A stretch of DNA of 64,000 bases from Dehalococcoidia bacterium. Its GTDB lineage: Bacteria; Chloroflexota; Dehalococcoidia; Lucifugimonadales; UBA3495. Where the stretch lies: positions 1,244,095-1,308,094 of the forward strand of contig OZ244064.1 in assembly GCA_965215425.1 (NCBI GenBank). Direction: 5' to 3'. Shown piece by piece: positions 2,914-42,466 of this stretch. Positions within the stretch are counted from its first letter, which is position 1, and every line of letters begins with the position of its first letter. The position numbers and the translations under genes were made by a program. Under the pieces are notes generated by a model, which had not been told where the DNA came from, made no database searches, and saw only the letters and a program-made list of their open reading frames with translations.

Positions 2914-3140
2914 CTCCGCACCGAGCCATGATAAGCCATGGTAAGGGAATAGGTTAGGACAAATCCCCCCGCCTTGTCCCTGTAATTTCCCCTCCGGTTA
3001 CGGGAAAATCAGGAGCGAAACACCGGAGCCGGGGCGCCTTTTACCGCAGAAACGTATGCGAACCCGGGAACAGGTCAGGACAAATCCCTCGCCTGGCCCC
3101 GGCGTTTTACGTAGGGGACTACTCAACGGACGGGTTGATG

Positions 3141-3189
3141 TGTATAATGCGTATTTCCAATCCCCGGATTATTGTGATATATTTAACAA
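3141..3189 (+). promoter_or_regulatory. possible gltB promoter -10 element plus downstream 18-bp imperfect palindrome
   Basis: TG-TATAAT at 3141-3148. TTGTGATATATTTAACAA at 3172-3189 is symmetric at 14 of 18 positions (TTGT...ACAA). It sits about 150 nt upstream of the gltB ATG. I found no convincing -35. Confidence 0.3.
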
Positions 3190-3332
3190 ACTGCCGGGCT
3201 GCGCCCGGCGGTGGCTCAGTTGAATCCTTTTCCCGGTGGACTACGCCGGAGTCCATTCGTTAGCGAAAGTTAGCAAATCTCTGGCGAGCCTGGTTTGACC
3301 CCTCGCAAACTCCTGGAGTAAGGGTAGCGTCA

Positions 3333-6300
3333 ATGAACCCGTTAAGAGAACTGGCCCGGCACGGGCTGTATTCTCCCCACCTGGAGCATGATAGTTGCGG
3401 GGTGGGTATGGTTGCCAACATCAAGGGCAGCCAGTCCCACCAGATAATTACCGAGTCTTTGCAGGTGCTGGTCAATCTGGGACATCGGGGAGCCTGCGGC
3501 TGCGACCCGGAGACCGGCGATGGCGCGGGCATTCTGTTGCAGATGCCCCATGCCTTTCTGAAGAAGGTATGTCCCGGACTGGGGATCGACCTGCCGGCGC
3601 CGGGGGCCTACGGCGTAGGGATGGTTTTTCTCCCGCCCCGGCCCGAAGCCCGGGCCAGGTGTCAGGACTTGATTGACCGCTCCATCGCCGCCGAGGGGCT
3701 GGAACTGCTGGGTTGGCGCGAGGTGCCGGTGGACCCCGCCAGGCTGGGGCGGGACGCCCGGTCGGTGCAGCCCGTAATTCGCCAGGTGTTCGTCGGCAGC
3801 GGGCCGGACTTTCCCGAACCGGAACAGCTTCAGCGCAAGCTCTACACCCTGCGCAAGGTCATCGAGAACGCGTTGCCGAACTGTGGCCTCAGTGAAGAGG
3901 ACGCCGACTACTTTTACCTTTGCAGTCTGTCCAACAGCACCCTGGTCTATAAAGGGCTGCTGATGGCCCACCAGGTCGCCGGCTTTTACCGGGACCTGGA
4001 CGACGAATCCCTGGTCAGCGCCTTTGCCCTGGTGCATTCCCGTTTCAGCACCAACACCCTGGGACATTGGAAACTGGCCCATCCCTACCGCTACCTGGCG
4101 CATAATGGCGAGATTAACACCCTACGGGGCAACACCAACTGGATGCACGCCCGGGAAGCCCAGTTCGAGTCGCCCCTGTTCGGCGCCGACATCCAGAAAA
4201 TACCCCCGGTGATGACCCCCGGGGCCAGCGATACCGCCGGCTTTGACAACGCCCTGGAACTGTTAATGATGACCGGGCGCAGCCTCGACCACGCCATGCT
4301 GATGATGATTCCCGAGGCTTGGGAGCAGCACGAGTCAATGTCCCGGGAGAAGAAGGACTTTTACGAGTACCACTCCTGCCTGATGGAACCCTGGGACGGC
4401 CCGGCGATGATTGTGGCCGCCAACGGGCATAACATCTGCGCCGTCCTGGACCGCAACGGCCTGCGTCCCTTCCGCTACACGATCACCAAGGACGACAAGC
4501 TGGTGATGGCCTCGGAGACCGGGGTGCTGGACATTCCTCCCGACCGGATACGGCAGCGGGGCCGCCTCCAACCGGGCCGGATGTTCCTAGTCAGCATGGA
4601 GGAAGGCCGCATCATCGGCGACGAGGAGTTGAAACGGAAGCTGTCGCGCCGCCATCCCTACGGCGCCTGGCTTCGGGAAAACCGGGTTTCCCTGGACGAC
4701 CTGCCGGAAGCCCCGGCGGTCGCGCCGCCGGACAAGGGAGAACTGACCCGGCAGCAGCGGGCCTTTGGCTACACCGGGGAAGAGCTGCGGCTCCTCACCA
4801 CCCCGATGGCGGCCAGCGCCTACGAGGCGATCGGTTCCATGGGCAACGACACGCCGCTGGCGGTGCTGTCCGAAAAGAACCAGTTGCTGTTCAATTACTT
4901 CAAACAGCTTTTTGCCCAGGTAACCAATCCGCCCCTGGACGCCATCCGGGAGGAATTGATTACTTCTCTGGAAGCCTTTATCGGCTGCGAACAGAACCTC
5001 TTTGCGGAAACGCCGCGGCACTGCCATCAGTTGAAGCTCAAGTCGCCGATTATTACCGATGCGGAACTGGAGAAAATACGCCGGGTTGACGTGGGCGACG
5101 TGCGGGCCATCACCCTGCCGGCCCGGTTCGACGCCCGGCAGCAAGGCTCCCTGAAAGCGGCGCTGGATACCCTGTGCGACCAGGCAGCTCAAGCCATCCG
5201 GGACGGTTACAGCCTCATTATCCTGTCCGACCGGGGCGTGGATGCGCGCCAGGCGCCGATCCCCAGCCTGCTGGCTACGGCGGCGGTACACCACCACCTG
5301 ATCCGAGAAGGCGCCCGCACCAAGGCCGGCCTGGTGGTCGAGTCCGGCGAGCCCCGGGAAGTGCATCACTTCTGCCTGCTGCTGGGCTACGGCGCCGGGG
5401 CGATCAACCCCTACCTGGCCCTGGCCACCGTCCGGGACCTGGCCGAACAGGGCGAACTGAACGGCGCCAAGCCCGATTACGCCGTCCAGAACTATATCAA
5501 GGCCAACGAAAAGGGCCTGCTCAAGGTGATGTCCAAGATGGGCATTTCCACAGTGCAGAGCTACCGGGGCGCCCAGATTTTCGAGGCCGTCGGCCTGAAC
5601 CGGGACCTGATTGACCGCTACTTTACCTGGACTCCCTCCCGGGTTGAAGGCATTGGCCTGGAAGTGGTGGAGGAAGAACAGCGGCAACGGCACCGCTTTG
5701 CCTTTCCGCCCCGGCCGGTCGCCGCCGCGCCGGAACTGGACCCGGGCGGCGCCTACCAGTGGCGCCGGCACGGGGAAGTCCACCAGTGGAACCCGGACAC
5801 CATCGCCAGGCTCCAGTACGCCACCCGGGCCAATAGCTGGGACTCCTACCAGCAGTTCAGCCAAGCGGTCAACGACCAGAGCAAGCAGTTGGCTACCCTG
5901 CGCGGCCTGCTGGAGTTCAAGGCCGTCCGGCCGCCGGTTCCCCTGGATGCGGTGGAACCGGCCCGGGAAATCGTCAAGCGCTTCGCCACTGGCGCCGCCT
6001 CCTTCGGCTCCATCAGCAAGGAAGCCCACGAGACCCTGGCGATTGCCATGAACCGCATCGGGGCGCGCAGCAATACCGGCGAGGGCGGCGAGGACTATCA
6101 CCGCTATACCCCCGACGCCAACGGGGATTCCCGGAACAGCGCCATCAAACAGGTGGCCTCCGGGCGGTTCGGCGTTACGCCCAATTACCTGATCAACGCC
6201 ACCGACCTGCAAATCAAGATGGCCCAGGGTTCCAAGCCCGGCGAGGGCGGACAGTTACCCGGCCACAAGGTGGACGAGATTATCGGCTGGGTGCGCCATA

Positions 6301-7877
6301 CCACCCCCGGCGTGGAGCTGATTTCGCCGCCGCCCCATCACGACATCTACTCCATTGAAGACCTGGCCCAACTGATTCACGACCTGAAGAATATCAACCC
6401 GGACTCCCGGATCCACGTCAAGCTGGTGGCGGAAGTGGGGGTGGGAACCATCGCCGCCGGCGTCTCCAAGGGTCATGGCGACGTGGTGCTGATCAGCGGG
6501 CACGACGGCGGCACCGGGGCCTCTCCCGAATCCTCCATCAAGCACGCCGGGCTGCCCTGGGAGTTGGGGCTGGCCGAAACCCAGCAGGTACTGGTCGCCA
6601 ACGACCTGCGCAGCCGCATCGTGGTGCAGACCGACGGCCAGCTCAAGACCGGCCGGGACGCCGCCATCGCCTTCCTGCTGGGGGCCGACGAGGTCGGCTT
6701 TGCCACCGCGCCGCTGATTGTCAGCGGCTGCATTATGCTCCGCAAGTGCCACCTGAACACCTGCTCGGTGGGCATTGCCACCCAGGACCCGGAGCTGCGC
6801 CGGCGGTTCGCCGGCAAGCCGGAATACGTCATCAATTACTTCTTCTTCGTGGCGGAAGAACTGCGGGAGATTATGGCGCGCCTGGGCTTCCGCACGGTGC
6901 AGGAGATGATTGGACGGGTGGAGGCGCTGGAGGCCAGTACCGCCGTGGCGCAGGGCAAAGCCCGGGGCCTGGACTACTCCAGGCTGCTGTACCGCCATCC
7001 CAAGTCGGACGAAGTGGTTATCTACCAGTGCGAAGAACAGGACCACGGGCTGGAGAATGCCCTGGACCACCAGTTGATCGCCCGATGCGGCCCGGCCCTG
7101 GAGCGGCGGCAGCCAGTCAAAATCGCCCTGCCCATCCGCAACTCCAACCGCACCGTTGGCGCCATGCTCAGCGGTAAAATCGCCAAGCGGTACGGGGAAG
7201 AGGGCTTGCCTTCGGGAACGATCCGGATAAACCTCGCCGGCTCGGCCGGCCAGAGCTTCGGCGCTTTCCTGGCCGAGGGCGTGGACCTCCGGCTGGAAGG
7301 GGACACCAACGACTATCTGGGCAAGGGCATGAGCGGCGGCAAGATTATCGTTTGCCCGCCGGCCGAATCCGACTTTGTGCCGGAGGAAAATATCATCATC
7401 GGCAACGTGGCCCTCTACGGCGCCACCGGCGGCCAGGCGTTCATTCGCGGGCTGGGCGGCGAGCGGTTCTGTGTCCGCAACAGCGGCGTCCAGGCGGTGG
7501 TTGAGGGCGTCGGCGACCACGGCTGCGAGTATATGACCGGCGGCATCGCCGTGGTCCTCGGCCCCACCGGCCGCAACTTCGCCGCCGGCATGAGCGGCGG
7601 CATCGCCTTTATTTATGACGCCGCCGGGGACTTCGCCACTCGGTTCAACGACGGCATGGCCGACCTGGAGCCGGTTTCCGACCCGGAGGACGTGGCGGTT
7701 CTCCGCCGGATGATTGAAGACCACCTGGAATACACCGGCAGCGGCCCGGCCCGGCGCATCCTGGCCGACTGGAACCAGGCCCTGCCCCGGTTCCACAAGG
7801 TAATGCCCCGGGATTATCGCCGGGTGCTGGAAGAACGCCGGAGAAACAGGAAAATGGAAGTAGCTAGTCATGGGTAA
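3333..7877 (+). CDS. gltB: glutamate synthase large subunit
   Basis: 1514 aa. Has the N-terminal amidotransferase Cys ([14 protein letters not shown]), the FMN/3Fe-4S central domain and the C-terminal GXGXG-type domain. Immediately followed by gltD. Confidence 0.97.
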
Positions 7878-9324
7878 CCCCAGCGGATTTATGGAAGCCG
7901 GCCGGCAGCCGCCGGAGCGCCGCCCGGTAGCCGAAAGAAAGGCGGACTACCAGGAGCTATACTTGGACTGGCCGGAAAAGGCCGCCCGGGAGCAGGGTTC
8001 CCGGTGTATGGACTGCGCCGTGCCCTTCTGCCACATGGGTTGCCCCCTGGGTAACGTCATCCCGGAGTTTAACCACCACGTTTACCGGGGCGAATGGCGC
8101 AAGGCGCTGAAGGTGCTGCACAGCACCAACAACTTCCCGGAGTTCACCGGCCGGATTTGCCCGGCGCCCTGCGAAGCCTCCTGCGTCCTGAGCATTAACA
8201 ACGACCCGGTAACCATTGAATACATCGAGAAGGAAATCGCCGACCGGGGTTATCAGGAAGGCTGGATACAGCCCCAGCCACCGGCCCGGCGCACCGGCAA
8301 GCGGGTGGCGGTGGTCGGTTCCGGCCCGGCGGGACTGGCAGCAGCACAGCAGCTGAACCGGGCCGGCCATTGGGTAACTGTCCTGGAGCGGGCCAACTAC
8401 GTCGGCGGCCTGCTGATGCTGGGCATCCCCGACTTCAAACTGGACAAGCAGGTAGTCCACCGCCGCGTCCGACTGTTGGCCGAGGAGGGGATCGACTTCC
8501 GCACCGGGGTCAACGTGGGCGTCAATTACCCGGTGGAGCAACTGCGGGCCGAGTTCGACGCCATCTGTCTCACCGGCGGCTCCACCCAGGCGCGGGACTT
8601 GCCGGTGCCGGGCCGGGAGCTGGACGGTATCCATCTGGCCATGGAATATCTGCCCCAGCAGAACAGGCTGCTGGCCGGCGAGACGATCGACCCGGCGGAA
8701 CGCATCAGCGCCGAGGGCAAGCGGGTGGTCATCCTGGGCGGCGGCGATACCGGGGCGGACTGTCTGGGCACCGCCCACCGCCAGGGCGCCGAGGTGGTGT
8801 ACCAGTTCGAGTTGCTGCCCGAACCACCGGAGCAGCGGCGTCCCGACAACCCCTGGCCCCAATGGCCGGCTATTCTGCGCTCCTCCCCGGCCCACGAGGA
8901 GGGAGGCATCCGGGACTACAACATCCTGACCAAATCCTTCTCCGGCAGTCAGGGCCGGGTGGAACGGCTGCACGCCGTCCGGGTGGAATGGAGCGCCGGC
9001 GACGCCGGCCGCTTTAATATGGCCGAGGTTCCCGGCAGCGAGCTGGAAGTGGAAACCGACCTGGTGCTGCTGGCGATGGGCTTCCTGCACCCGGAACATC
9101 AGGGGATGTTGACCGACCTGGGCGTGGCACTGGACGCCCGGGGCAACGTAACGGCGGACCAGAACAAGATGACCAGCATCCCCGGCGTGTTCGCCGGCGG
9201 CGACATGGCCCGGGGCCAGTCCCTGGTCGTCTGGGCCATCGCCGAAGGTCGGGAAATGGCCCGGGGCGTGGACGCCTACCTGGCCGGCCAGACCAGCCTG
9301 CCCCGATCGATGCCGTCGAACTAA
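7870..9324 (+). CDS. gltD: glutamate synthase small subunit (NADPH)
   Basis: 484 aa with Cys clusters ([18 protein letters not shown]) and dinucleotide folds ([27 protein letters not shown]). Overlaps the gltB stop by 8 nt. Confidence 0.95.
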
Positions 9325-9832: not shown

Positions 9833-9872
9833 TCTTTGCTGTGCTGGCGAACCTGAACCGGGTTAAGGCCGG

Positions 9873-11345
9873 TCAATCCGCCGCCGCATGCTCCGCCGGG
9901 GCCGGCTCGGACTGGGCCGCTTGCACCAGTTGGGCGTGGCGGCTCAGGTATTCCTGCAGATCCAGCACCTGAATGGTGTTGGTGGTGCCGGATACGCCGG
10001 TCAGGCTGCCGTGGACGATGGTAACCACGTCCGATTCGGTTACCAGGCCGGTGGCGAGGGAGCCGCTGATCAGCATCGCCACCAGCCGGGCGATGTCCTG
10101 CTCCAGGGGGATGACGCCGCTGGGATAGAGGCCCCAACCCAGACACAGCTTGCGCAGGGTTGCCTCGTTATGGGAAAAGACGATGACGTCGCCCTCGGGA
10201 CGGTAACGGGCCACCTCAAAGGCGGCGCGGCCGGTGCTGGTAACCACAATCGGCTTGGAATGCAAGGCGCGCACCAGGCGGCTGGCGCCGGCGGCGATGG
10301 CCTGGGTGCGGTCTCTGGCCCGGAAATCCTTGTAAAAGGGGTAAATCTTTTCCGATTCCCGGATGGTAACGTCGGCCACCCGTACCGCCTCCACCGGGTA
10401 CTGCCCCACGGCGATTTCATCGGAGAGCAGGATGGAGTCGCAGCCATCCAGGACGGCATTGCTGATGTCCGACACCTCGGCCCGGGTGGGCGTGGGGGAT
10501 ACTACCATCGACCGAAGCATCTGGGTGGCGATGCAGGAGATCTTGGCCGCTTCGTTGGCCTTGCGGACGATTTCCTTTTGCACCAGCGGCACCCGCTCCA
10601 TCGGGATTTCCACGCCCAGGTCGCCCCGGGCGACCATCACGCCATCCACTTCCTCCAGGATCGAATCCAGGTTGTCAATCCCCTCGCCCCGCTCCAGTTT
10701 AGCCATCACCGGGGCCTGGCTGCCAATGCTTTCCAGGTACGCCTTGGCGTAGCGGACATCCTCGCCGGTGCGGACGAAAGACACGGCCACCCAATCGACC
10801 TGTTGCTCCACGCCGAAGCGCAGGGCGTCCTTATCCTCCTCGGTAAGCACCGGCAGGTCGATGGATACGCCGGGGAGATTGACCCCCTTGAACGAGGAGA
10901 TTATACCGCCGTTGCGGACCCGGGTTTTTATCTCCAGACCGTTGGTTTCCAGCACCTCCAGGCAAACAATGCCGTCAGAGATGAAAATCAGGTTGCCCTC
11001 CCGCAGGTTGCGCAGGACGCCGGGTTCCGGGAAGGGAATCGTGTTGGGGTCAGTGGCGGATTCCTCCGGGATTACCCGGTACTCCTCGCCGTGATAGAGG
11101 GTCTGCACCTCGTCCATCCGGCCCAGGCGCAGCTTGATGCCGCCCAGGTCTTGCAGGATCCCCACGTGGCGGCCATGCTTTGCCGACAGGCGGCGGACGT
11201 TGTGGATTATCTCCGCATGCTCGGCGAAGGTGCCGTGGGAGAAGTTAAGCCGGGCGCAGTCCATTCCATTGAGAATCAACTGCTCCAGGGTTTCCGGGTC
11301 CCGGGAGACCGGGCCGATGGTGGCGATAATCTTGGTTTTACGCAT
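9873..11345 (-). CDS. pyk: pyruvate kinase
   Basis: MRKTKIIATIGPVS...NFSHG...MVARGDLGVEIP. I trimmed the start to ATG 11345. The upstream in-frame Met codons lie inside the intergenic repeat. Confidence 0.95.
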   Translation of the reverse strand: MRKTKIIATIGPVSRDPETLEQLILNGMDCARLNFSHGTFAEHAEIIHNVRRLSAKHGRHVGILQDLGGIKLRLGRMDEVQTLYHGEEYRVIPEESATDPNTIPFPEPGVLRNLREGNLIFISDGIVCLEVLETNGLEIKTRVRNGGIISSFKGVNLPGVSIDLPVLTEEDKDALRFGVEQQVDWVAVSFVRTGEDVRYAKAYLESIGSQAPVMAKLERGEGIDNLDSILEEVDGVMVARGDLGVEIPMERVPLVQKEIVRKANEAAKISCIATQMLRSMVVSPTPTRAEVSDISNAVLDGCDSILLSDEIAVGQYPVEAVRVADVTIRESEKIYPFYKDFRARDRTQAIAAGASRLVRALHSKPIVVTSTGRAAFEVARYRPEGDVIVFSHNEATLRKLCLGWGLYPSGVIPLEQDIARLVAMLISGSLATGLVTESDVVTIVHGSLTGVSGTTNTIQVLDLQEYLSRHAQLVQAAQSEPAPAEHAAAD

Positions 11346-11348
11346 AGG

Positions 11349-11496
11349 CTGACACTCCCGCCCGCGCCGCATGGTGAACTCTCTATGGTTGCGGCCCGGC
11401 GGGGATAGTCGGGGGCCCCGCCCGCGCCGCATGGTGGACTCGCCGGCGCCAGGCGGTGGAGCCGGTCGCTGACACCCCCGCCCGCGCTATGATGCG
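11349..11496. repeat. three copies of a ~20-29-bp box at an exact 60-bp period
   Basis: CCCGCCCGCGCCGCATGGTG at 11357 and 11417; CCCGCCCGCGCTATGATG at 11477. Copies 1 and 3 share the extension GCTGACAC(T/C)CC. The intervening 40 bp are unrelated. Confidence 0.7.
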
Positions 11497-11573
11497 CCGG
11501 TCGAACCAACGTACCGTCCCCACCCCGCGACCGGTTCAGGAGGAGCGGGAACCCGGGCCTCCGCCGGCTTTTC

Positions 11574-13480: not shown

Positions 13481-13770
13481 CCTCCGGTAGCTCCGGGACG
13501 CGCCGGAGCTTCGAGCCGGGCGTCCCGGGGCTACCGGAGGATTGCAGCCGGCGACTATCCGGCGTATCCGGCCCGGGGCGCGCCGGAGCTTCGAGCCGGG
13601 TGGCCCGGAGCTACCGGGGGATTGCAGCCGGCGACTATCCAGTTCATCCGGCGTATCCGGCCCGGGGCGCGCCGGAGCTTCGAGCCGGGTGGCCCGGGGC
13701 TACCGGGGGCTACCGGGGGATTGCAGCCGGCGACTATCCGGTTCATCCGGGCCGGCCCGGTTGGTTAAAG
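13481..13770. repeat. tandem repeat (units of 79 and 89 bp, about 3 copies); the first unit forms a ~60-nt near-perfect hairpin
   Basis: CGCGCCGGAGCTTCGAGCCGGG recurs at 13500, 13579 and 13668. ATTGCAGCCGGCGACTATCC occurs three times. CCTCCGGTAGC (13481-13491) pairs with GCTACCGGAGG (13530-13540). The repeat sits in a convergent intergenic gap. Confidence 0.85.
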
Positions 13771-16746: not shown

Positions 16747-16896
16747 TGGTGGGCGGCCCGGCCGTTTACCGGCGCCCCGGCGGGAGAACCTCCCGCGCAC
16801 CTCCGCTCCGCCAACTCAGCGAGCGTTTACCGGTGCGCCGGCAAAGGGACCCGGCCCATTCAACCCAATCCGAGAGCCACGAAATAAGGAGCGCTT

Positions 16897-22247: not shown

Positions 22248-22317
22248 AGTTATCTCCCACCAGATTCCAGATTACTGATTGCTTGAGCCTGATTGCTTGA
22301 ACCGGGGCGGAGACGGG

Positions 22318-22899
22318 TTACTCAATCGCATCGGCCACCGCCAGCGGTTCCGGCTCTATTGCCCGGGGGTCGGGGCCGTAGCGGTTGGGGCCGTCCTCGC
22401 CCTGGCGGGTCAGCCATAGCACGGCCCAAAGGATTATTGCCAGGTTGATTACCAGGGCGATGATGCCCACTCCCACCAGGGGAGCGATAATTGACCGGTC
22501 AAAATCGCCAAAGAACGCACTGGACAGGGCGATGCTGCCGACCAAAGCCAGGGGTATCCAACCGACGATGGCGATGACGTACCAGACCAGCAACCACCAA
22601 CCGCTCTTGCCGATGTCGTGCAGCCGCCGGGTGTCCACGGCGAGGGAGGGCAGCAGGATCGCCAGCGCAAATATGGTCTGCACCGGGCTGAAAGACCATT
22701 CATTCTGGGAATTAAAGGAGTTGACCGCGGCGTCAACCGAGGCCGCCATCAGAGTGCCCAGGAAAGCGGCCAGCGTCCACCACCAGCATTCGGCGCGGGT
22801 GGCCCGCCCGCTGAAATCGCCGTACTTTCGCAGGCACTGTTTTACTGCATCTACAAAGGTCATCATCGGCTTGGTCCGGGGCATTGCCGGCGCTTCCAT
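22318..22899 (-). CDS. DUF805-family inner-membrane protein
   Basis: KYGDFSGRATRAECWWWTLAAFL signature, multiple TM segments, RRLHDIGKSGWW, C-terminal NRYGPDPR. Several possible Met starts. Confidence 0.8.
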   Translation of the reverse strand: MEAPAMPRTKPMMTFVDAVKQCLRKYGDFSGRATRAECWWWTLAAFLGTLMAASVDAAVNSFNSQNEWSFSPVQTIFALAILLPSLAVDTRRLHDIGKSGWWLLVWYVIAIVGWIPLALVGSIALSSAFFGDFDRSIIAPLVGVGIIALVINLAIILWAVLWLTRQGEDGPNRYGPDPRAIEPEPLAVADAIE

Positions 22900-24214: not shown

Positions 24215-24505
24215 ATGATTATTCAGTCGGTCAGCCACCGGGGACTGCGCCGGTTAATTGAGGAAGATAATCCCCGATTGATCGGTCGGGAACTAGCCAA
24301 CCGAGTCCGCGTCATAATCACTGCCTTGAGGCGAGCCGAGGACATTTCCCGGTTCGTCGAAAGAGCGCCCCGGGGTTGGCGTGTCCACCGATTAGCCCGC
24401 AGCCGGGGCAGTGAATGGAGTGTTTCGGTATCTGGCAACTGGCGGATTACTTTCGAAATAGAGGGCGACCGCGTCTATAACTTGAGCTTGGAGGATTATC
24501 ACTAA
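24215..24505 (+). CDS. higB: HigB-like (RelE/ParE-superfamily) toxin
   Basis: 96 aa. WRVHRLARSRGSEWSVSVSGNWRITFEIEGDRVYNLSLEDYH matches the HigB killer-protein pattern. Confidence 0.85.
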   Translation: MIIQSVSHRGLRRLIEEDNPRLIGRELANRVRVIITALRRAEDISRFVERAPRGWRVHRLARSRGSEWSVSVSGNWRITFEIEGDRVYNLSLEDYH

Positions 24506-24810
24506 TGGAACGTCCGGGCATCAAAATGAATATGACTCCGGCGCATCCCGGCTTGTTCATCCAGACGGAGATTATTGATGAGTTGGGGCTGGACACGGCC
24601 CAAATTGCGGCAATACTGGGTGTGGCTGAGGCCGTCGTTTGCGCCCTGGTGAACCAGCAAACCCGTCTGACACCGGAGCTGGCACTGCGGCTGGAGAAGG
24701 CTTTTGACCTCCAGATGGACTTGCTGCTACCGGTACAGGCCTGGTACGACGCCGTGCAGATGCGCGCCCGGTGGGATGAGGCGCCGGTGGAACGCTACCA
24801 ACCCGGTTAA
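24505..24810 (+). CDS. higA: HigA-like HTH (XRE) antitoxin
   Basis: 101 aa. HPGLFIQTEIIDELGLDTAQIAAILGV...LTPELALRLEKAF. Its start overlaps the higB stop (ATAATGG). Confidence 0.85.
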   Translation: MERPGIKMNMTPAHPGLFIQTEIIDELGLDTAQIAAILGVAEAVVCALVNQQTRLTPELALRLEKAFDLQMDLLLPVQAWYDAVQMRARWDEAPVERYQPG

Positions 24811-26472: not shown

Positions 26473-26573
26473 CGGTTCCCTCCGTCGGTTCCGTTTGAAA
26501 ACGGGATTTAGCCCCGCCGGGGCCGGGCGTATCGGCGCGCCGAAACGTTAAAATCCAACGGAACCCCTCCGTC

Positions 26574-26655
26574 GGTTCCGTTTACAATCAGGGTTTACCC
26601 CGTATGAGAAGCAGCGACTACGCCCTGAAATTACACCCTGAAAGTAAACGGAACC
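26574..26655. repeat. second copy of the GGTTCCGTTTAC motif, closed by an inverted copy (MITE-like or operator-like)
   Basis: GGTTCCGTTTAC at 26574-26585 and its reverse complement GTAAACGGAACC at 26644-26655. There is another GGTTCCGTTT at 26487-26496. CCCTCCGTCGGTTCCGTTT is duplicated at 26478 and 26565. Confidence 0.65.
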
Positions 26656-26662
26656 CCCGCCG

Positions 26663-27586: not shown

Positions 27587-27739
27587 ATTGACCTCGCTTT
27601 TGATTGATGCGTTGCTGCGTCGCTCCGGGTCGCTCCGGTTCACGAAATCGGGGAAATAGTCGGGAAGCAACCGGGAAGGAAAGGCTTGGGAAACGGTCGA
27701 ACAGTCGCCGCGGCTCAGGCCGGGCCGCACCGGGCCAAT

Positions 27740-28705
27740 TCAGATACTCCCACTCCCGCCCCTGCCCCCGCGCCACTGAGGTTCGGCCGGGCCGCACCGG
27801 GCCAATTGCTGCGCGTGGGCCACGGCCTGGTCGTAATAGTTGGCGATGTAGTATTCGGCAATTTCGTCGGCGGTGGTCTGCCAGACGCCATCATGGGCCA
27901 TTATGTACCCCAGGATGTCGTCCAGGTACTTGACCCGGTGGGGTTGACCAATGAGGAAGGGATGCAGGGCAATGCACATAACCTGGCCGCTCCTGGCGCC
28001 TTCCCGGTAGAGCTGGTCGAACTGGGCCTTGCAAATCTCGGCAAAATAGTCGGTCCCGTAGTGATTGTCCCGCAGCACCGAGGAATCGTTCAACTCGATG
28101 GAGTAAGGCACCGACACCAGCTTGCCCGCATTGACTTTGATTGGCGTCGGCTGATCGTCGTGAAACCAGTCGGTATGGTAGATTAACCCGGCCTCGGCCA
28201 TCAGGTCAGGGGTATGCACGCTTCCCGAAATCGCCGGCCCCAACATTCCTTTCAACTGCTTCCCGGTATGCCGCTTCAGGGTATCAATACAATCCCGGTA
28301 GAACTCCCGCTCCTCATCCTCGGTGCCGGTATAAAGGTAACGGGTGTTGTAGATGCCGTGGCTCATATAATCCCAGTCCCGGGCCAACATCGCCGCCGCA
28401 ATTTCGGGGAAATGTTCCAGCACCGCCAGGTTCAGCGACACACAGCAACGGATTCCGTACTTATCCAACGGCTCCAGCATCCGCCAGAAGCCGACCCGGT
28501 TGCCGTAGTCCCGGTAGGAGTATTGCTGCACGTCCGGGTAGGGCGTGCGCGGCCACGGATTGCGCACGCCGGCGTGCTCCGGGAGATACTCGTAATGCTC
28601 CACGTTGGGGGAAATCCAGAGCGCAACCCGGGCCTCCCCGGGCCACTGGATAACGGGCCTATCGATAATGGGCAGGTAGTCAATGCGGTCGGGAGGCAGG
28701 GCCAT
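27740..28705 (-). CDS. polysaccharide deacetylase-family protein (paralog)
   Basis: 321 aa. IIDRPVIQWPGEARVALWISPNVEHYEY is collinear with the neighbouring paralog. Confidence 0.8.
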   Translation of the reverse strand: MALPPDRIDYLPIIDRPVIQWPGEARVALWISPNVEHYEYLPEHAGVRNPWPRTPYPDVQQYSYRDYGNRVGFWRMLEPLDKYGIRCCVSLNLAVLEHFPEIAAAMLARDWDYMSHGIYNTRYLYTGTEDEEREFYRDCIDTLKRHTGKQLKGMLGPAISGSVHTPDLMAEAGLIYHTDWFHDDQPTPIKVNAGKLVSVPYSIELNDSSVLRDNHYGTDYFAEICKAQFDQLYREGARSGQVMCIALHPFLIGQPHRVKYLDDILGYIMAHDGVWQTTADEIAEYYIANYYDQAVAHAQQLARCGPAEPQWRGGRGGSGSI

Positions 28706-28763: not shown

Positions 28764-28916
28764 AGGTTGCGCCCCGGGCGCCGGGAACCATCCCGTCTGA
28801 CCTGGTTCCAAAAATAAGTGCGCACGGTTGCGCCCCGGGCGCCGGGAACCATCCGATTCACGTACGGCTGGCGGACACGCAGCCCCGGTTGCGCGCCCCG
28901 GGCGCCGGGAACGATA
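28764..28916. CRISPR. CRISPR-like mini-array: 3 repeats (29, 29 and a degenerate 31 nt) and 2 spacers of exactly 32 nt; no cas genes in the window
   Basis: GGTTGCGCCCCGGGCGCCGGGAACCATCC at 28764-28792 and 28825-28853. A degenerate copy with a 2-nt insertion lies at 28886-28916. The unrelated spacers are 28793-28824 and 28854-28885. The reverse complement ...GTTCCCGGCGCCCGGGGCGCAACC resembles type I-E repeats. Confidence 0.4.
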
Positions 28917-29273
28917 TTCAAGCCTACTTAAGCCTAACGTCAGCTGAAGTCTAACTCCGGGACGCCGCCCCGTCAAACCGGAGCGGCCGGGGTTAACGCG
29001 CCGGCCTCAAACCATCCTCGAACTATTACCCCGCCCTTGCCAACGGGCTGGCTCCATGCCTATGATGGGCTGCCGGCTGGCCCGCCACCGGCGATTTTGG
29101 CACGACGGCCGGCTCCATGCCTATGCCGGGCCTATGCTGGGCGGTATTCGGCGGACCGGCGACAGACCGGCGCGTGGCAGTTGCCAGCCTGAGACGCCGG
29201 GCGGAGGCGCCGGGCGGAAAGGTTCCTACCCCATTCCCCGCACGACAGATTCATTTACCGGGAGAGAAAAGTT

Positions 29274-32333: not shown

Positions 32334-32597
32334 AAAGGTACACCCCTGCGCTGAAATGGTTGGTGTTGAAATGGCTGATGTTGATGCGTCAACGGTCAGT
32401 GGCGGTAGTCTAAAAGGATCCGGGGTTGCTGTCAATCGGGGGGGTTGTTGCGCCGGGCGACGCCGCGCCGGCGCAGTGCGCCGGGAGGAACCGGCCCGCG
32501 GCGGCGAAACTCCGGCGTTTCTGCCGCTCCCGGTGGGGAAAGACGGCTATCGTACAGGTTCTGGTGGTATTGGTTGGGTTTTCTGCCGCTCCCGGTG

Positions 32598-32937: not shown

Positions 32938-33279
32938 TCTCTTATTGCTCCTCTGAACTAGCGGTTATTGAGGATAACGGCTCCCCGACCGCCCGTCTCC
33001 CCCTGGAGGATAACCGGGGAACTATTAGAATTATAGCATAGCCCGGCGGGTTTGCAATACGATACCGGGACAATAACGGGACCGGGCGCTGGCTGCCGTC
33101 GCTCAAACCGGATGATTCCACAATCCCGGGACCACGGCGGGACCGGGACAAGCAGGGCGCCGCCGGGTCTTTTGAGGGGTCGGGCGGTAACCTCCCGGCA
33201 ACCGCCGCCTGATTCCCGGAGGGATCACCGGAGGGGCAAGGCCGCCGGGTTCCGGCGCTTACCGTTTACTTACCGCTAC

Positions 33280-35166: not shown

Positions 35167-35320
35167 TCCCGGGGCTTACCTACCCCTGGGGAAAAGGCGC
35201 CGGTCGTCATTGACGTCGGCGGGTACAGGACCCGCCGACTTCGATCGCAGTTGGACTACCCCAATGAAGGGACTCCGGCGGGTACAGTATCTGCCCCTAC
35301 CGCCCCGGCCCGCCGTCGAT

Positions 35321-36784: not shown

Positions 36785-37716
36785 AAAAGTTCTACTGCGC
36801 CCACACCGGACAGCGAAAGTTGTTCCGGCTGCCTGGTGGGGCCACCTTTGCCGGGAATTATCCGCAACCCCAGAGTTTGCGGACTTACCCCTCTGGATCG
36901 CCTAGCCATCTTCACCGGCTGGATGTAGGGCAACTTTGCCATCAGGGGAATTATCCAGTCGGCATACTCACTCAGGCCGCCGGGCAGGTAATCACCACTC
37001 AGAAATCCGGCGGCGCGCAGTTGCTGCCAAAGATCCAGGAACGCCGCTTCGGGAATGGCAACTGACCCGTCAGCAAGCTCCAGGATTATTGAAACCTCGT
37101 CGGCGCCAATCCGCGCCGGGAAGGGATCGTCGCTGCCGTCCCCCGCCGCGCCGGCGCCAATCACCGAGACCAGATCCGTCCAGACCTCGGTAAAGGCCAG
37201 GGATTCCGGCTCGCCCCGCAGCCATTCCCTGGTTTCCCGGATACTGCGGTGTTCCGGCATATAGGGGTCTTCAAGGTCTTGCCGGTGAATGTAAACGTCT
37301 ATCGGCAGCTTGCCCAGATACTGCTCCATCAGGGGACGTACCTGAGTTTCCCAATTCAGTTCGCCGTTGCCGCAGCCCAGCAGGGGAAAGGAGATGTCCG
37401 TAATGCCATAAACGTGGTAAGTATCGGCAAATTTCCGCAACCCGGCCTCGATGTAATCGGGTCGGGAGGGGCTGCGCCAGTGTTTCTTGGTGGGAAAGTT
37501 CAGCACCCACTTGTGCGGCGTCCGGTAAAGCCACAGCTGGCCGGTGGCGAACAGACCCTTCTCGCACAGTTCCTGATACCGGGCAAACATTTCCGGGTAA
37601 ATGGTCTTGAAGTCCCTGGCGATCCCCTTCCCCATCACTCCCACGGTGTTCACCGTATTCACCAGAGTCCGGGCCGGACTGGTAAACAAGTCGCACACCA
37701 CGTAGGTAATCATCAT
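36781..37716 (-). CDS. DarG-like macrodomain protein
   Basis: MITYVVCDLFTSPARTLVNTVNTVGVMGKGIARDFKTIYPEMF...LNFPTKKHWRSPSRPDYIEAGL...FPLLGCGNGELNW closely follows the DarG macrodomain pattern. A C-terminal region of about 170 aa has unknown fold. Start trimmed to the ATG at 37716 or 37713. Confidence 0.8.
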   Translation of the reverse strand: MMITYVVCDLFTSPARTLVNTVNTVGVMGKGIARDFKTIYPEMFARYQELCEKGLFATGQLWLYRTPHKWVLNFPTKKHWRSPSRPDYIEAGLRKFADTYHVYGITDISFPLLGCGNGELNWETQVRPLMEQYLGKLPIDVYIHRQDLEDPYMPEHRSIRETREWLRGEPESLAFTEVWTDLVSVIGAGAAGDGSDDPFPARIGADEVSIILELADGSVAIPEAAFLDLWQQLRAAGFLSGDYLPGGLSEYADWIIPLMAKLPYIQPVKMARRSRGVSPQTLGLRIIPGKGGPTRQPEQLSLSGVGAVELL

Positions 37717-37847
37717 TAAACTCCCGGAAAAATTTTGATACCTTCGCTTCCTCTTCCTTTGATTCCGCAAGCTGCCATTTTGCCACGCCCGGCCCCGGGC
37801 CACAAGAAAGGCTTTGCACTGGTTCCGGCCAAATCGGTGGGATAAAT

Positions 37848-37876
37848 ATAATAGAATATATGTTCTGCATCTTCAA
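37848..37876 (-). promoter_or_regulatory. candidate promoter of the macro/DarT-like operon
   Basis: On the minus strand: TTGAAG, 17-nt spacer, TATTAT, within an AT-rich patch (GGGATAAATATAATAGAATATATG). Confidence 0.45.
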
Positions 37877-37903
37877 CCGGGAACTGTCAGGCCGGCAAGG
37901 GCA

Positions 37904-39415
37904 TCACCGGCCGTCCCGCCCTCCCGTCAGCAAAGCCGGCGCCAGCGCCAGCAAGGCGATTACCCCGGCAGCGCGGAAGAAGCGGTGGAACAGGCTCAGG
38001 CCGGCCCGGGTTACGGCGTCCTGATAGGCAACCAGCCGGGCCGCCGCCTCCGCCGCCGGTTCCCCGGGGGTTGGCAGGGGCAGGCTTAAACCGGCGGTCA
38101 GGGCCTGGAAGTGCTCGATGCCCCAGGCCGCCAGGGCCGCCAGACCCAGGGTCATCCCCAGCAGCCGCGACACCACCACCAACGCCGCCGCCGTCCCCCG
38201 GTAATCCTCGCTTACCGTGCGCAACGCCTGGGCCATTATCGGCGCAATGACCAGACCAAATCCCAGACCGGTTATTGCCAGGTGCAGCGTCAACGCCGGC
38301 TCCGCCACCTCCAGCCCCCAGCCGCCGACTAGGAACAAGCCCACCGCCGTCAGAACCAATCCGGCGGCAATCACCGACCGGCCTCCCCACCAATTGGGCC
38401 ACCACCGGGGCCACCACTTGGGCCACCAACCGGGCCAGGCCAGCAGTTGACCGCCGATAACCGCTCCCACCGGGATGGCGCCGGTCAGCCGCAGCAGCCA
38501 CAGGGCGCCGGTAAAGGGGTCTTTACCCATTACCGTGTTAGCCATCAAAGGCACAGTTACCAGGGTAATAATCAGCGAAACGCCTACCAGCAGTTGGGTC
38601 AGGTTGGCCGCCACGAAAGCTACCGACCGGAACAGCAACAGCGGCAACAGGGGCTGACCTACCCGCAATTCCAGCGCGCCCAGGCCCACCGCCAGGGCCA
38701 GCGCCAAGCCGCCCAGGAGGAAAGGCTGGGCCGAGGCCAGGGTGAACAGTCCGGGGCGGGACAGGGCCAGGGACAAGACCAGCAGCGTTGCCACCAGCAA
38801 AGCCCCGCCCAGGTAGTCCACCCGGGCCTCCCGGTTGCGGCGGTTGGGCAACCACAGCAGACCCGGCAGCAGCAGGGCGACCTGAGGCAGGTTCAGCCAG
38901 AAAAGCCACCGCCAGTCAGCCAACTCCACGATGACCCCGCCATAGGCCGGCCCCAGCATCGCACCGGCCTCGGCGGCGGCGCCGACGATGCCCAGCGCCA
39001 GGCCCCGGCGCTCCGGCGGCAACGCTCCGGCAGCCAGGGCAAACCCGACCGGCAGCGCCGCCGCGCCGCCGATGGCTTGAATGACCCGCGCCCCGATGAG
39101 CTCTTCCAGGCTGCCGGAAAGCGCCACCAGAATACTGCCCCCGGCGAATAGGCCCAACCCAATCATATAGACCCGCGGGCCGCCGTAAACGTCGGCCAGA
39201 CGGCCAATCAGCGGCATAAAGGCGGTGTAGCCCAGCAGATAGGCGGTAATAACCCAGGCTACCCGGTCCAACTCGGTTATCGGGATACGCAGGTCCAGCA
39301 TCATTGCCGGCAGGACGGTAACCACCACCGTCTGGTCCAGGGCGGTGAAAAAAGCGCCCAGACCGATGACGGCCAGGAGCAGCGGAACCCGGATTTCCCG
39401 GGGCTTGTCAACCAC
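37904..39415 (-). CDS. MFS transporter (14-TMS DHA2-like)
   Basis: 503 aa, polytopic. LDQTVVVTVLPAM and GRLADVYGGPRV motifs. Confidence 0.9.
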   Translation of the reverse strand: MVDKPREIRVPLLLAVIGLGAFFTALDQTVVVTVLPAMMLDLRIPITELDRVAWVITAYLLGYTAFMPLIGRLADVYGGPRVYMIGLGLFAGGSILVALSGSLEELIGARVIQAIGGAAALPVGFALAAGALPPERRGLALGIVGAAAEAGAMLGPAYGGVIVELADWRWLFWLNLPQVALLLPGLLWLPNRRNREARVDYLGGALLVATLLVLSLALSRPGLFTLASAQPFLLGGLALALAVGLGALELRVGQPLLPLLLFRSVAFVAANLTQLLVGVSLIITLVTVPLMANTVMGKDPFTGALWLLRLTGAIPVGAVIGGQLLAWPGWWPKWWPRWWPNWWGGRSVIAAGLVLTAVGLFLVGGWGLEVAEPALTLHLAITGLGFGLVIAPIMAQALRTVSEDYRGTAAALVVVSRLLGMTLGLAALAAWGIEHFQALTAGLSLPLPTPGEPAAEAAARLVAYQDAVTRAGLSLFHRFFRAAGVIALLALAPALLTGGRDGR

Positions 39416-39474
39416 GAATACCCCGAATCGGCGCGGAAAGTTTTCTCAACCTTTAGTTGTTTACTATTAGCTCT

Positions 39475-40467
39475 TTAGTTGCCAATTTCCGGCGCGGTTA
39501 TCTCCGCCGGGGGATCCAGGGCCTCCAAAGTCAGGGTGCGTCCGGCCGCCGCCGCGTCGCCGGGCGACAGCGGGCCAGCCAGCAGCGCCCGGGGCAGCCG
39601 GATTTCCGCCCGGTCGGCCCAGATTTCTACCGCCACGTCCGGCCCCGCCGTATCCGCCGTATCCGTCAGGACCGCCGGGACCAGTTGACCCAAAGTCGCC
39701 GCCGGCAGCGTCCCCCGTATGCGGTAGGCAGTGTAGCCTTCTAACGCCAACCGCTCCTCGCCGGCCAATTCCGGGGACTGTACCCCGGAAATAAGTCCGG
39801 CAAAGGTTTCGGCCGCATTATCCAGCCGGAAGGGAACCGCCTCCCGTTCCGTCCGTTCCCATTGGCCGCTGAACAGGTTGGTTATAAAGGCCCTCTCTTC
39901 CACCGCTATCACGCTGACTTGCAGGAAGGAGCCGGATGTCTCCAGGTCCAGCGTGATGTGGAAGTTTCCGGGGACAGCGGCGGGGGCGGCGACCGCGGTA
40001 TCACCCCCCGCAGTATCAACCCCCGCAGCAACAGGCCCCGCAGCAACGGGACGGTTGAAGACCCCCTCGGCCCGGGTCAGGAGCAGGCCGGGACCTATCC
40101 GGGCGCCGCCGGATTGGTGTTCCAGGACAAAGGCCAATGACTCCGTCGCCGCCACCCGCGCCGCCGCCCGGGACAGGATGGCCTGTGGGTCCGGCGGCGG
40201 AGTAGGAGTAGGGGTGGGGACAGGGGTGGGAGAGGGCCCGGGCAGCGGCAGCGGCGTCGAAGCCGGAGCCGGCCCCTCCCCGCAGGCCAATGCCACCTGG
40301 AAAAGCAGCAGCAACGGCGCCGCCGCCAGTAACCGCCAGGGTTTCGGTCCTTTCACCGGCAACCTCAATCCGGTCCCGGATCCGGGACGGCACCCGGGAA
40401 GGTATCCGGGATACCGATAACCGGGAGCCGGCGACCCGGCCTTTCCCTCCGGCGCGCCGGCCGGCAT
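39475..40467 (-). CDS. LppX/LprAFG-like lipoprotein
   Basis: Signal with lipobox (LLLFQVALAC), a Pro-rich linker, then a domain of about 230 aa resembling DUF1396. Sits directly upstream of the MFS gene, as in mycobacterial lprG-Rv1410c. The true start is probably internal (GTG before KGPKPWRLL). Confidence 0.6.
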   Translation of the reverse strand: MPAGAPEGKAGSPAPGYRYPGYLPGCRPGSGTGLRLPVKGPKPWRLLAAAPLLLLFQVALACGEGPAPASTPLPLPGPSPTPVPTPTPTPPPDPQAILSRAAARVAATESLAFVLEHQSGGARIGPGLLLTRAEGVFNRPVAAGPVAAGVDTAGGDTAVAAPAAVPGNFHITLDLETSGSFLQVSVIAVEERAFITNLFSGQWERTEREAVPFRLDNAAETFAGLISGVQSPELAGEERLALEGYTAYRIRGTLPAATLGQLVPAVLTDTADTAGPDVAVEIWADRAEIRLPRALLAGPLSPGDAAAAGRTLTLEALDPPAEITAPEIGN

Positions 40468-40476
40468 TCCCCGCCT

Positions 40477-42270
40477 CTAGTTCCAGGACCAGAAGGCTAC
40501 GCTGCCCGCGGCTAGCTCCGTCGGGGGAGCATTCCCCACCGCATCCAGCACGTACACCCGCGCCCCGGTGGGAGTATGGCCGTTGCGCCGCTCCGCCACC
40601 GGGCCGGGCGACCCGGCCACCACCAGCCGGGAGCTGTCCGGCGACCAGGGAGAATGGGAGTAGGCGTACTGGTCAAAGAAGCTGAGCATCGTAAAAACCT
40701 CGCCGCTGGGCCGGAACCGGAACAGTTCCCGCGCCGCCGCGCCGTTGTCCGGTTCGCCGGCCGAACCGCCTTCCGCCGGCGCGGCGGAGGCGGCCAGGTC
40801 GGCGACCTTCCACTCAAACACCTGCTCTTCCGCATCCACGGATACCCAGGCCAGGCGTTCCCCGCTGGGCGCCCAGTAAAAGGCCAGCAGCGGCTCCTCT
40901 ACCAGGGTACGGACCAAGGTACGAATCGGGGTACGGACGCCGGCGGCAACGGTCACCAACCGAATGCGTTGAAAGACGCTTCCCCGAACGCCCTGACGGT
41001 CGGCCACCGCCAGCGTGCTTCCGTCCGGCGACCAGATGAAGGCGGAAAAGGGCCCTACTTCCAGTATTTGCCGGGGCGTCGCCGGGGCGTCCGCTTCCCC
41101 CACGTAGAGCGTGCTGCCGGCGGCGCCGGATACCGGGTCGGATACCGGGTCAGACACCGTGTAGGCCCAGCGCCGTCCATCCGGGGACAGGGCCGGCGTC
41201 CGAAAGCTCGCCGTATCCACCAACCGCCAGGCCCGGTCGGGCCGGAAGGGTTTGCGCAGCAGCTTGACCGCCTCCCGGGAATGGACCATCAGGGAGTCGC
41301 CGTCGCCGCCCCAACTGTAGTAGAGGGGCGCCCCCCGCTCCAACGCCACCGCGCCTCCGGTGGTATTCGGGTTCACCGCAAACAGGGTTAACCCCTGCCG
41401 GGTGGTAGCCAGAAAGGACAGGTATTCACCATCGGGAGACCAGTAGAGATAGTGGGGGGCGCCGTCGGCAATCAACGCCGGAACGTCGTTCTCATATACC
41501 ATCCGGCCCCGGCCGGTGGCGGCGTCCAGCACCTGGACCGACACCTGCAAAGCGCGGTTGTCGGCAATCCGCACCCGGGAAACGGCCAGCCGGGTTCCGT
41601 CGGGCGACCAGGTAGGCCAGGCATAGACGTTGTTAAAGTCCAGATCCTGAACCCGATAGACGCCGGACGGGTCCGCAGCCCCCGGCGGGCCGTCCGGCCG
41701 GGGTTGCGGCGATTGAGGTGATTGCGGCGATTGAACCTGGCTGCCGCCGGTCAGCCGCCGCTCCCCACTGCCGTCGGGCCGGACGGTGAACAAGTCGCCA
41801 TAGGGACTGATGTAGGCAATCCGGTCAACGCTCAAGCTGACTGCCTCCCCGGTGGTTGCGCCGGTTGTTGCGGTTGTTGAGTCGGTTCTTGCGCCGGGTC
41901 TCGCACCGGTTTTTGCGCCAATCGTTGCAGCTGTTGCAGCTATTGTCGCTTCAGGCTCCCCGGTTACCGCCCCGGTGGTCGACCCGCCGGTTCTTGCGCC
42001 GACCGTTGCAGCTATTGTCGACCCGGGTTCCGCTCCGGGTTCCGCTCCGGGTTCGGTATCCCGGCCCGCGCCGGTCGCCGCGCCGGGTTCCGCTGACCGG
42101 CCCGGCGGGCCGGCCAGTTCGGGCAAGGGGTAGGGCAAGTTGCCACAGCCGGCCAGGGCCGGAATCGTTCCCAGCATCATCCCCAGCAGGGCTGCAATCT
42201 GGAACCACGCGGCCGGCCGCGCCAGGTACCCGGTCAAATACCCGGTCAAAAACCGGACCAAACGCTTCAC
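40477..42270 (-). CDS. TolB-like PD40 beta-propeller lipoprotein with a low-complexity linker
   Basis: Only the 3' portion of listed ORF 40477..43959 is real. It has a signal with lipobox (TIPALAGC), a Gly/Thr/Ala/Pro-rich linker, then PD40 repeats (SPDG...LAV..., WSPDGEYLSF). The start (GTG 42270) is approximate. Confidence 0.7.
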   Translation of the reverse strand: MKRLVRFLTGYLTGYLARPAAWFQIAALLGMMLGTIPALAGCGNLPYPLPELAGPPGRSAEPGAATGAGRDTEPGAEPGAEPGSTIAATVGARTGGSTTGAVTGEPEATIAATAATIGAKTGARPGARTDSTTATTGATTGEAVSLSVDRIAYISPYGDLFTVRPDGSGERRLTGGSQVQSPQSPQSPQPRPDGPPGAADPSGVYRVQDLDFNNVYAWPTWSPDGTRLAVSRVRIADNRALQVSVQVLDAATGRGRMVYENDVPALIADGAPHYLYWSPDGEYLSFLATTRQGLTLFAVNPNTTGGAVALERGAPLYYSWGGDGDSLMVHSREAVKLLRKPFRPDRAWRLVDTASFRTPALSPDGRRWAYTVSDPVSDPVSGAAGSTLYVGEADAPATPRQILEVGPFSAFIWSPDGSTLAVADRQGVRGSVFQRIRLVTVAAGVRTPIRTLVRTLVEEPLLAFYWAPSGERLAWVSVDAEEQVFEWKVADLAASAAPAEGGSAGEPDNGAAARELFRFRPSGEVFTMLSFFDQYAYSHSPWSPDSSRLVVAGSPGPVAERRNGHTPTGARVYVLDAVGNAPPTELAAGSVAFWSWN

Positions 42271-42316
42271 GATAAGCGCCACTAACACCCCCGGTACCGG
42301 TTTCCCAAGAATACCA

Positions 42317-42466
42317 CCCCCACCTCCCCGTAGCAACGGCGGGCGGTTGGCCAGTTGTCCCTGAGCGTTCCCGCAGAGGCCCACCCCCCGTAACAACGGG
42401 GCGAGGGCTCCGAGATGCCGAGTCGGAGGGTCTGCCAGCGCCCACCCCCCGTAACAACGGGGAGAG
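42317..42466. repeat. three hairpin-containing boxes at a 60-61-bp period between the divergent TolB-like gene and dnaA
   Basis: CACCTCCCCGTAGCAACGGCGG at 42321; CCCACCCCCCGTAACAACGGGG at 42380 and 42441. Each contains CCCCGT-aaca-ACGGGG. Confidence 0.7.

Follow-up and report, generated by a model that had tools for sequence, protein, structure and literature searches.

Why should unrelated intergenic sequences in one stretch of a bacterial chromosome each be repeated at almost the same distance? The stretch in question, a 64-kb piece of a Dehalococcoidia (Chloroflexota) chromosome (hereafter the window; 63.7% G+C), carries housekeeping genes (glutamate synthase, pyruvate kinase, aconitase, dnaA, obg, glyA, rpsF, ssb and tRNA-Glu), and between its genes lie short boxes, different at each site, that recur about 61 bp apart. 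An earlier inspection of the letters alone (the sequence-only reading) had listed eight such loci. We find that they are built of a duplicated box (R) on either side of an unrelated insert (S), with dimensions that match the repeats and spacers of a small CRISPR array lying among them. The explanation that we favour, and on which our judgement is evenly balanced, is that the loci arose by Cas1-Cas2-type integration at non-CRISPR, often hairpin-bearing intergenic sites and are thus neo-CRISPR loci.

A fixed spacing in intergenic DNA

Repeats were sought by comparing 28-nt windows at offsets of 30-300 with thresholds of at least 20 or at least 21 matches of 28, over the whole window and over its intergenic DNA (9.0 kb in total). 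Across the whole window, exact self-matches of at least 10 nt gave 7 runs at a distance (d) of 60 and 5 at d=61 versus 0.45 per offset, while 28-nt windows with at least 21 matches gave 11 loci at d=59-63 versus 0.15 per offset over 30-300. In intergenic DNA only, at 20/28 or better, 11 loci were found at 59-63 versus 0.08 per offset elsewhere; ~0.4 would be expected (Poisson P ~ 7e-13), bearing out the earlier view that the periodicity is non-random. Of the other intergenic repeats of at least 21/28 at offsets of 30-300, four lie at twice the period (120-124), five belong to a separate tandem repeat of 80-99 bp at 13.5 kb, and one is at d=87. The pattern did not extend to related genomes: a control set of 80 other genomes, from Dehalococcoidia and relatives (1.6 Mb in total), had no peak at 59-62 bp, and offset 61 gave two matches in total, one of them a clean 28 + 33 pair upstream of a ferredoxin gene in L004, a sequence from the next-closest species. 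Chance is rejected by the offset scans together with this control and, the L004 case aside, the loci are restricted to the species. Two coding matches at d=60 (19416 in SpoU and 54407 in RsmI) were considered as in-frame integration events and rejected; both proteins are colinear with their PDB homologues and lack a 20-amino-acid insertion, so these matches were taken as chance and excluded.

The loci recur in independent assemblies of a sister strain ~97% identical to the window (GCA_964347845.1, a metagenome-assembled genome (MAG) from NCBI, and two SPAdes-style ENA assemblies) and so are no assembly artefact. About 60 kb of sister-strain sequence was compared, in the pieces designated L081, L083, L164 and L166; look-ups with two proteins at the edge of the window gave nothing that would carry the comparison past its left edge. 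In species-representative genomes the relatives, all of them Dehalococcoidia MAGs, reach an aconitase identity of at most 92%, and a metagenome scan with aconitase as the query returned nothing nearer than 80% at the amino acid level.

All eight loci listed previously are present, and correction of two open reading frame (ORF) artefacts places every locus in intergenic DNA. The true start of pyruvate kinase lies near 11345, and a 1160-amino-acid ORF covering the 42326 locus (40477-43959, minus strand) is spurious, a product of high G+C content that merges a PD40 lipoprotein gene (true start ~42260) with the antisense strand of dnaA, which starts at 42616. Four of the sets of coordinates given earlier were exact, the CRISPR-like repeat starts one base later (28765), and two sets were off by 1-5 nt; TTTCTGCCGCTCCCGGTGGG, placed at 32517 and 32578 with a spacing of 61 bp, lies at 32518 and 32580 with a spacing of 62 bp, and CCCCGTA.CAACGG starts at 42326, 42386 and 42447. 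At 16764 the coordinates were right, although the first copy reads GTTTACCGGCGCCCC and is no literal match to the pattern given for it.

Repeat-spacer-repeat anatomy

The boxes were measured with mismatches allowed, and the sister strain was used for ancestral states. The loci of the window, with the coordinate by which each is cited here, are as follows.

2945-3093 (2956): 28-bp box GGGAA.AGGT.AGGACAAATCCC.C in two copies 121 bp apart (23/28); class membership uncertain
11348-11500 (11357): three boxes at 60 + 60 bp, registers overlapping, upstream of pyruvate kinase; R + S = 26 + 34
16763-16851 (16764): R(28)-S(33)-R, period 61, with R = CGTTTACCGG.GC.CCGGC....G.ACC (21/28), between a DinB-like gene and a hydrolase gene
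29043-29132 (29050): R(27-28)-S(34)-R, measured as 28 + 34, period 61 at the core GGCTCCATGCCTATG, upstream of a CMD-family gene; conserved with its spacer in L081
32517-32606 (32518): R(28)-S(33)-R (ancestral), period 62 now and 61 ancestrally, ancestral R = GTTTCTGCCGCTCCCGGTGGGGAAAGAC, between the ferredoxin terminator and the aconitase promoter
33059-33155 (33077): one ~61-bp unit and a terminal box
35212-35297 (35217): R(27)-S(32)-R, period 59, between convergent genes
42320-42468 (42326): three-copy mini-array R(28)-S(32)-R-S(33)-R, periods 60 and 61, upstream of dnaA

R spans 24-29 bp (most boxes 26-29), longer at the lower end than the 12-29 bp given before, and S spans 32-37 bp (mostly 32-34). 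Exceptions in the length of R are 20 nt (11357, copies A and C), 23 nt (27741, described below) and 32 nt (an L164 locus, also below), and those in the length of S are 37 nt (33077), 44 nt (27741) and 93 nt (2956). The edges between R and S are sharp, and spacer identity in the offset alignments looks no better than chance; aligning the loci confirmed that the DNA between copies is unrelated, as had been stated from the sequence. At 42326, R reads (G)CCCACCCCCCGTAACAACGGGG.GAGG and has a 6-bp hairpin at its centre; the match is 26/28 between copies B and C, copy A is older (20/28), and the S segments beside them are unrelated. At 11357, copies A and B share CCCGCCCGCGCCGCATGGTG.ACTC (24/26) and copies A and C share GCTGACAC.CCCGCCCGCGC (20 nt, d=120). 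Copy A at 35217 forms a terminator-like hairpin with a 9-bp stem, while copy B has decayed in the window (20/27) and is better kept in L081. The 16764 locus is conserved in L164, spacer included. A middle copy at 2956 was considered and found unconvincing (14/28); only the second copy of this pair falls inside the sister-strain sequence, where it is conserved.

The 42326 boxes were also considered as iterons of the replication origin (oriC) and rejected. Five DnaA boxes, of which two are perfect (TTATCCACA), are clustered at 47454-47681 between tRNA-Glu (47261-47337) and obg, ~3.5 kb past the point where dnaA (42616-44004) ends; cumulative GC skew reaches its minimum at ~46-48 kb, and this cluster is probably oriC.

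The boxes are local resident sequence, such as the terminator-like hairpin at 35217 and a gene stop codon in the L164 case, and they are unlike one another. No box is shared between loci, as a dispersed repeat family of the repetitive extragenic palindrome (REP) or miniature inverted-repeat transposable element (MITE) kind would require, and the sequence-only reading had correctly treated each box as unique; k-mer counting for a shared flank motif gave GC-rich words only. Whole units that are alike, as in a variable-number tandem repeat (VNTR), were found only at 33077 in the other strain, where the unit forms a whole-unit tandem array (2 copies in L083; at least 4 and an assembly gap in L081). 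At all other loci S is unrelated. Judged from these alignments, the anatomy is that of repeat-spacer-repeat units and not of decayed tandem duplications.

A CRISPR array with the same dimensions

28765-28917: CRISPR array, with R1 28765-28793, S 28794-28825, R2 28826-28854, S 28855-28886 and a degenerate R3 28887-28917 (+2 nt)

The repeat of this array is GGTTGCGCCCCGGGCGCCGGGAACCATCC, and repeat and spacer add up to the same period as at the intergenic loci (29 + 32 = 61). R1 and R2 are identical (29/29) and the 32-nt spacers are unrelated to each other, so that the locus combines a direct repeat within the 23-47 bp of CRISPR repeats with spacers of constant length. In L081 the flanks are identical while a single spacer, wholly different from the two in the window, lies between two repeats, indicating acquisition and loss of spacers since the strains diverged. 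On the evidence of these two alleles the array is a genuine CRISPR that turns over its spacers. It is an orphan as far as the data reach, free of cas genes for at least 20 kb on either side, and no Rfam family matched it. Type I-E systems have the geometry 29 + 32, and the repeat has a sequence that, by eye, we take to resemble type I-E repeats. The boxes of the other loci were compared with the repeat as possible degenerate copies of it, a proposal that this comparison rejects.

Differences between strains

Six loci (11357, 16764, 29050, 32518, 35217 and 42326) are common to both strains, spacers included, and the next-closest species (L002/L004/L006/L007) lacks the 32518 pair in the corresponding intergenic region, which places these events after speciation and before the strains split. 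Four further loci are polymorphic between the strains.

22305-22335 (22314): window empty; in L164, 155 bp are inserted that include R(32)-S(33)-R, period 65, with R spanning the DUF805 stop codon
26590-26620 (26608): window an empty site with a single GGGTTTACCCCGTATGAGAAGCAGCGACTA; L081 has R(29)-S(32, novel)-R', period 61
27718-27807 (27741): window has a perfect 23-nt duplication of GGCCGGGCCGCACCGGGCCAATT on either side of 44 nt of novel DNA, period 67; one copy only in L081
55110-55150 (55116): variable terminator region; L166 has ~62 extra bp forming a palindromic R(27)-S(34)-R, period 61; window without the unit

The alleles at 27741 differ by exactly the 67 bp of R + S, the difference of ~62 bp at 55116 sits in a rearranged region, and the filled alleles at 26608 and 55116 hold DNA that has no counterpart beside the empty site. 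By these allele comparisons the units at 26608, 55116 and 27741 appear to be insertions with long target duplications and not tandem duplications.

Several structures stand beside or among these sites. Next to 26608 (26473-26662) there are three copies of a hairpin element, CGGTTCCGTTT / AAACGGAACC, two of them direct and 87 bp apart and one inverted. The palindromic R copies of L166 (4529-4546 and 4590-4607) differ by paired changes in their arms (GTCGGGCC with GGCCCGAC in one, GGCGGGCC with GGCCCGCC in the other), so that the hairpin is retained in both. A 60-bp insertion in L166 (2745-2804, opposite window position 53371) is close in length to the other loci, but has only 7-bp direct repeats (GCGCCGC) at its flanks and a hairpin inside, and is not of the R28-S33 form. 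The tandem repeat at 13493-13719, downstream of a glyoxalase gene, repeats whole units of 80-99 bp in 2.5 copies and is ~150 bp shorter in the sister strain; it is a class apart from the 61-bp loci.

Insert sources and target sites

An exact search of IMG/VR with 22-mers of the three CRISPR spacers, which has low sensitivity, gave 0 matches, and the repeat core and four neo-spacers were likewise without a match there. No source emerged when all inserts were compared by BLAST with the window and with 167 loci, and in this comparison the inserts share nothing with each other. The target sites give weak hints of common features. The boxes fold better than random intergenic 28-mers (-8.2 versus -5.7 kcal/mol, p ~ 0.03) and several have a roughly central palindrome. 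At the left edge two boxes begin with GTTTACC, a heptamer with only 12 occurrences on both strands of the window, a third with CTTTACC and one more with GAGTTCACC. Sites with hairpins appear to be favoured, possibly with a left edge resembling GTT(T/C)ACC.

A model of off-target spacer integration

In CRISPR adaptation, ~28 bp of target are duplicated and ~33 bp of unrelated DNA come to lie between the copies. Because the geometry of the intergenic loci is that of the resident array, the loci are most likely scars of misplaced spacer insertion. In the model that we propose, an integrase of the Cas1-Cas2 type would cut chromosomal DNA with a stagger of ~28 bp, a fragment of ~33 bp would be ligated in, and gap repair would duplicate the 28 bp between the cuts, giving R-S-R with a period of 61 bp whatever the local sequence. 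The step would be fixed because a local duplication of ~28 bp brackets a foreign insert of ~33 bp. Insertions would survive where they are harmless, which is in intergenic DNA. Sites that were hit again would now hold three copies (42326, 11357), while other sites would have gained units (33077) or lost theirs (26608) when two R copies recombined, a process expected to yield a variable tandem array such as that at 33077. The anatomy, its agreement in size with the resident array, the turnover of spacers, the polymorphism between strains and the confinement to this species are observed; Cas1-Cas2 as the enzyme, and the preference for particular sites, are the parts of this model that we infer. 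The one sign of an active Cas1-Cas2 in the genome, an indirect one, is the spacer turnover at 28765.

Several observations weigh against the model. No cas genes were found in either the window (64 kb) or the sister-strain sequence (~60 kb), and a source sequence was found for no spacer or insert in the local data or IMG/VR. The boxes have no overall similarity to the CRISPR repeat, and the preferences for a motif and for hairpins were recognised post hoc, at weak significance. Two of the polymorphic events are off size (23 + 44 = 67 and 32 + 33 = 65) and would not be produced by a strict type I-E ruler. The 11357 locus needs two overlapping events, one with a common box of only 20 nt, and the 2956 copies lie 121 bp apart. 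At 26608, where the alleles differ in length by 61-63 bp, the two R copies in L081 already differ by about a third. At the polymorphic loci an insertion looks the same as a deletion until an outgroup is added. Finally, the implied rate of off-target integration is very high, with ~10 fixed and ~4 polymorphic events per 64 kb. It is the missing cas genes and protospacer, the off-size events, the misfit of 11357 and 2956, the open direction of change and the high rate that hold our confidence in off-target integration at the midpoint.

Alternative explanations

The main rival is a cas-independent integrase or very small mobile element that makes staggered cuts of ~28 bp and carries inserts of 30-45 bp, with 28765 as its most-hit site. 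The off-size events (23 + 44 and 32 + 33) fit such an enzyme, as do the lack of cas genes in the sequence covered from both strains and the modest size of the 28765 array, which has only 1-2 spacers and no cas neighbours. We know of no element that behaves in this way. The comparison made of the inserts found no sequence common to them, which speaks against copies of a single element, and a geometry of 29 + 32 with a repeat that looks like a type I-E repeat (again by eye) is what a type I-E adaptation module predicts. We consider this rival unlikely.

Ordinary tandem duplication of ~60 bp, by slippage or unequal crossing-over, followed by uneven divergence that left only a core, is very unlikely. 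The youngest pairs combine a near-perfect R with an unrelated S and a sharp edge between them (26/28 for copies B and C at 42326; 23 nt around 44 nt at 27741), slippage offers no cause for one 61-bp step at a dozen unrelated sites, and the filled alleles contain DNA that is missing next to the empty site. In its favour are the whole-unit array at 33077, with its copy number varying in the sister strain, and the separate 80-99-bp repeat at 13493-13719. The sequence-only reading had already argued that plain tandem duplication fails to explain the loci, a point that holds at every locus except 33077 in the other strain. Its own suggestion of a duplication mechanism with a fixed step came close as regards the step; duplication of the whole unit with later selective conservation does not agree with a ~28-bp duplication that brackets a ~33-bp insert.

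The same source had also suggested decayed repeat-spacer structures, which comes near to the anatomy found here. In the form of remnants of several canonical CRISPR arrays, with different repeat families and their cas genes lost, the suggestion is highly improbable: at least 10 different repeats with a single 61-bp period in 64 kb of housekeeping genes are implausible, R is resident functional sequence (a terminator hairpin, a gene end), and the empty-site alleles hold exactly one R. The repeat-spacer anatomy itself speaks for such remnants, together with copy A at 16764, which at its two ends is like the repeat of the 28765 array (18/29, ~99th percentile of the null). Finally, the boxes might serve as binding sites for a protein, or as RNA elements, kept in a fixed phase, akin to the DNA-organising protein proposed earlier. 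This would suit the position of the loci in promoter and terminator regions, the 100% identity between strains of 440 bp around 42326, upstream of dnaA (window 42228-42671, compared with L081), the hairpins of several boxes and the compensatory changes in the palindrome arms of L166. It is scarcely credible given that the box differs at each locus, 61 bp is 5.8 helical turns and sets the sites off one helix face, strains 97% identical differ in which units they have, the sister species lack them, and second copies are visibly decaying.

Implications

To our knowledge, CRISPR spacer insertion scars at wrong sites are rarely documented in nature, and the only direct evidence on the birth of arrays known to us comes from E. 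coli strains that overproduce Cas1-Cas2. How new CRISPR arrays and their repeat sequences come about is not settled. We regard the finding as real and unusual, and are about half persuaded that it is best read as neo-CRISPR formation in nature, dense and in part still going on, around a very small active array. If off-target spacer integration is the cause, about one in ten intergenic regions of a wild genome would carry scars of native size, some fixed, some polymorphic between 97%-identical strains and one expanded, and the birth of arrays would become testable by comparative and population genomics. The adaptation machinery would then count as a mutational force whose effect on intergenic DNA can be measured, promoters, terminators and the region upstream of dnaA included, and the sequence and structure preferences of the integrase could be read from the loci, a natural collection of its off-target sites.

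A stronger proposal, which we regard as tentative and somewhat improbable, is that the lineage has a highly promiscuous spacer integrase, so that fragments of ~33 bp keep entering hairpin-bearing intergenic sites (hundreds of them by extrapolation) and mini-arrays are born, expanded and lost, the 28765 array being one such offspring that is now the preferred target. In a more radical version the enzyme would be other than Cas1-Cas2. A promiscuous integrase of this kind would mean de novo birth of CRISPR in a natural population.

Other features of the window

Outside these loci, four further features were seen.

44014-44792, minus strand: IS4/IS5-family transposase split into two ORFs (DUF4096 and DDE_Tnp_1), directly downstream of dnaA
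35795-37803, minus strand: gene for DarT, a single-stranded DNA ADP-ribosyltransferase, then a macro-domain gene, together a DarTG-type toxin-antitoxin/defence pair; both present in the sister strain
24215-24810: two small neighbouring ORFs (96 and 101 amino acids), which may be a variable toxin-antitoxin cassette; the sister strain is ~150 bp shorter and has the 101-amino-acid gene only
61254-62547: tandem pair of PaREP1-family paralogues with ~90% DNA identity between them

Comparison with known systems

The 28765 array shares with a canonical type I-E array its 29-nt, partly palindromic repeats, its unique 32-nt spacers, a degenerate terminal repeat and the turnover of spacers between strains. 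It differs in having only 2 spacers and no cas genes nearby, and the other loci of the window differ further in that each has a repeat of its own, made of local sequence, in only 2-3 copies. Type I-E systems are present in the class Dehalococcoidia (PMC8516407). VNTRs of the minisatellite type are matched by 33077 in the sister strain, whereas elsewhere the likeness is confined to ~28 of each 61 bp.

The closest parallel is with E. coli, where off-target integration by Cas1-Cas2 has been reported to create neo-CRISPR loci (Nivala, Shipman and Church 2018, Nat Microbiol 3:310, as cited in bioRxiv 10.1101/148544, PMC7054753, PMC11788318 and PMC9456107). The sequence-only reading had stated that it knew of no described class of element with this behaviour; on the accounts in bioRxiv 10.1101/148544 and PMC7054753, such a class had been described. 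According to those accounts, the E. coli loci likewise consist of a repeat-length duplication of non-CRISPR sequence around a spacer-length insert, with the period of the native type I-E array, and repeated hits turn them into small arrays with a new "repeat". The papers that cite Nivala et al. (2018) describe the natural evidence given there, from two other species, as circumstantial. As far as these sources go, the E. coli loci formed under overexpressed Cas1-Cas2, whereas those described here are natural and dense (~10 per 64 kb), and are partly fixed and partly polymorphic. Neo-CRISPR formation itself is thus known from E. coli, and its dense occurrence in nature would be the new aspect. 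In vitro work on P. furiosus found that off-target integration sites share features with the repeats (PMC6698737). The window may offer a likeness to that use of non-CRISPR DNA, since some boxes hint at a left edge of the GTT type and at a hairpin in the middle; the P. furiosus system is archaeal, has another repeat length and was studied in plasmid assays, with no natural genomic scars reported there.

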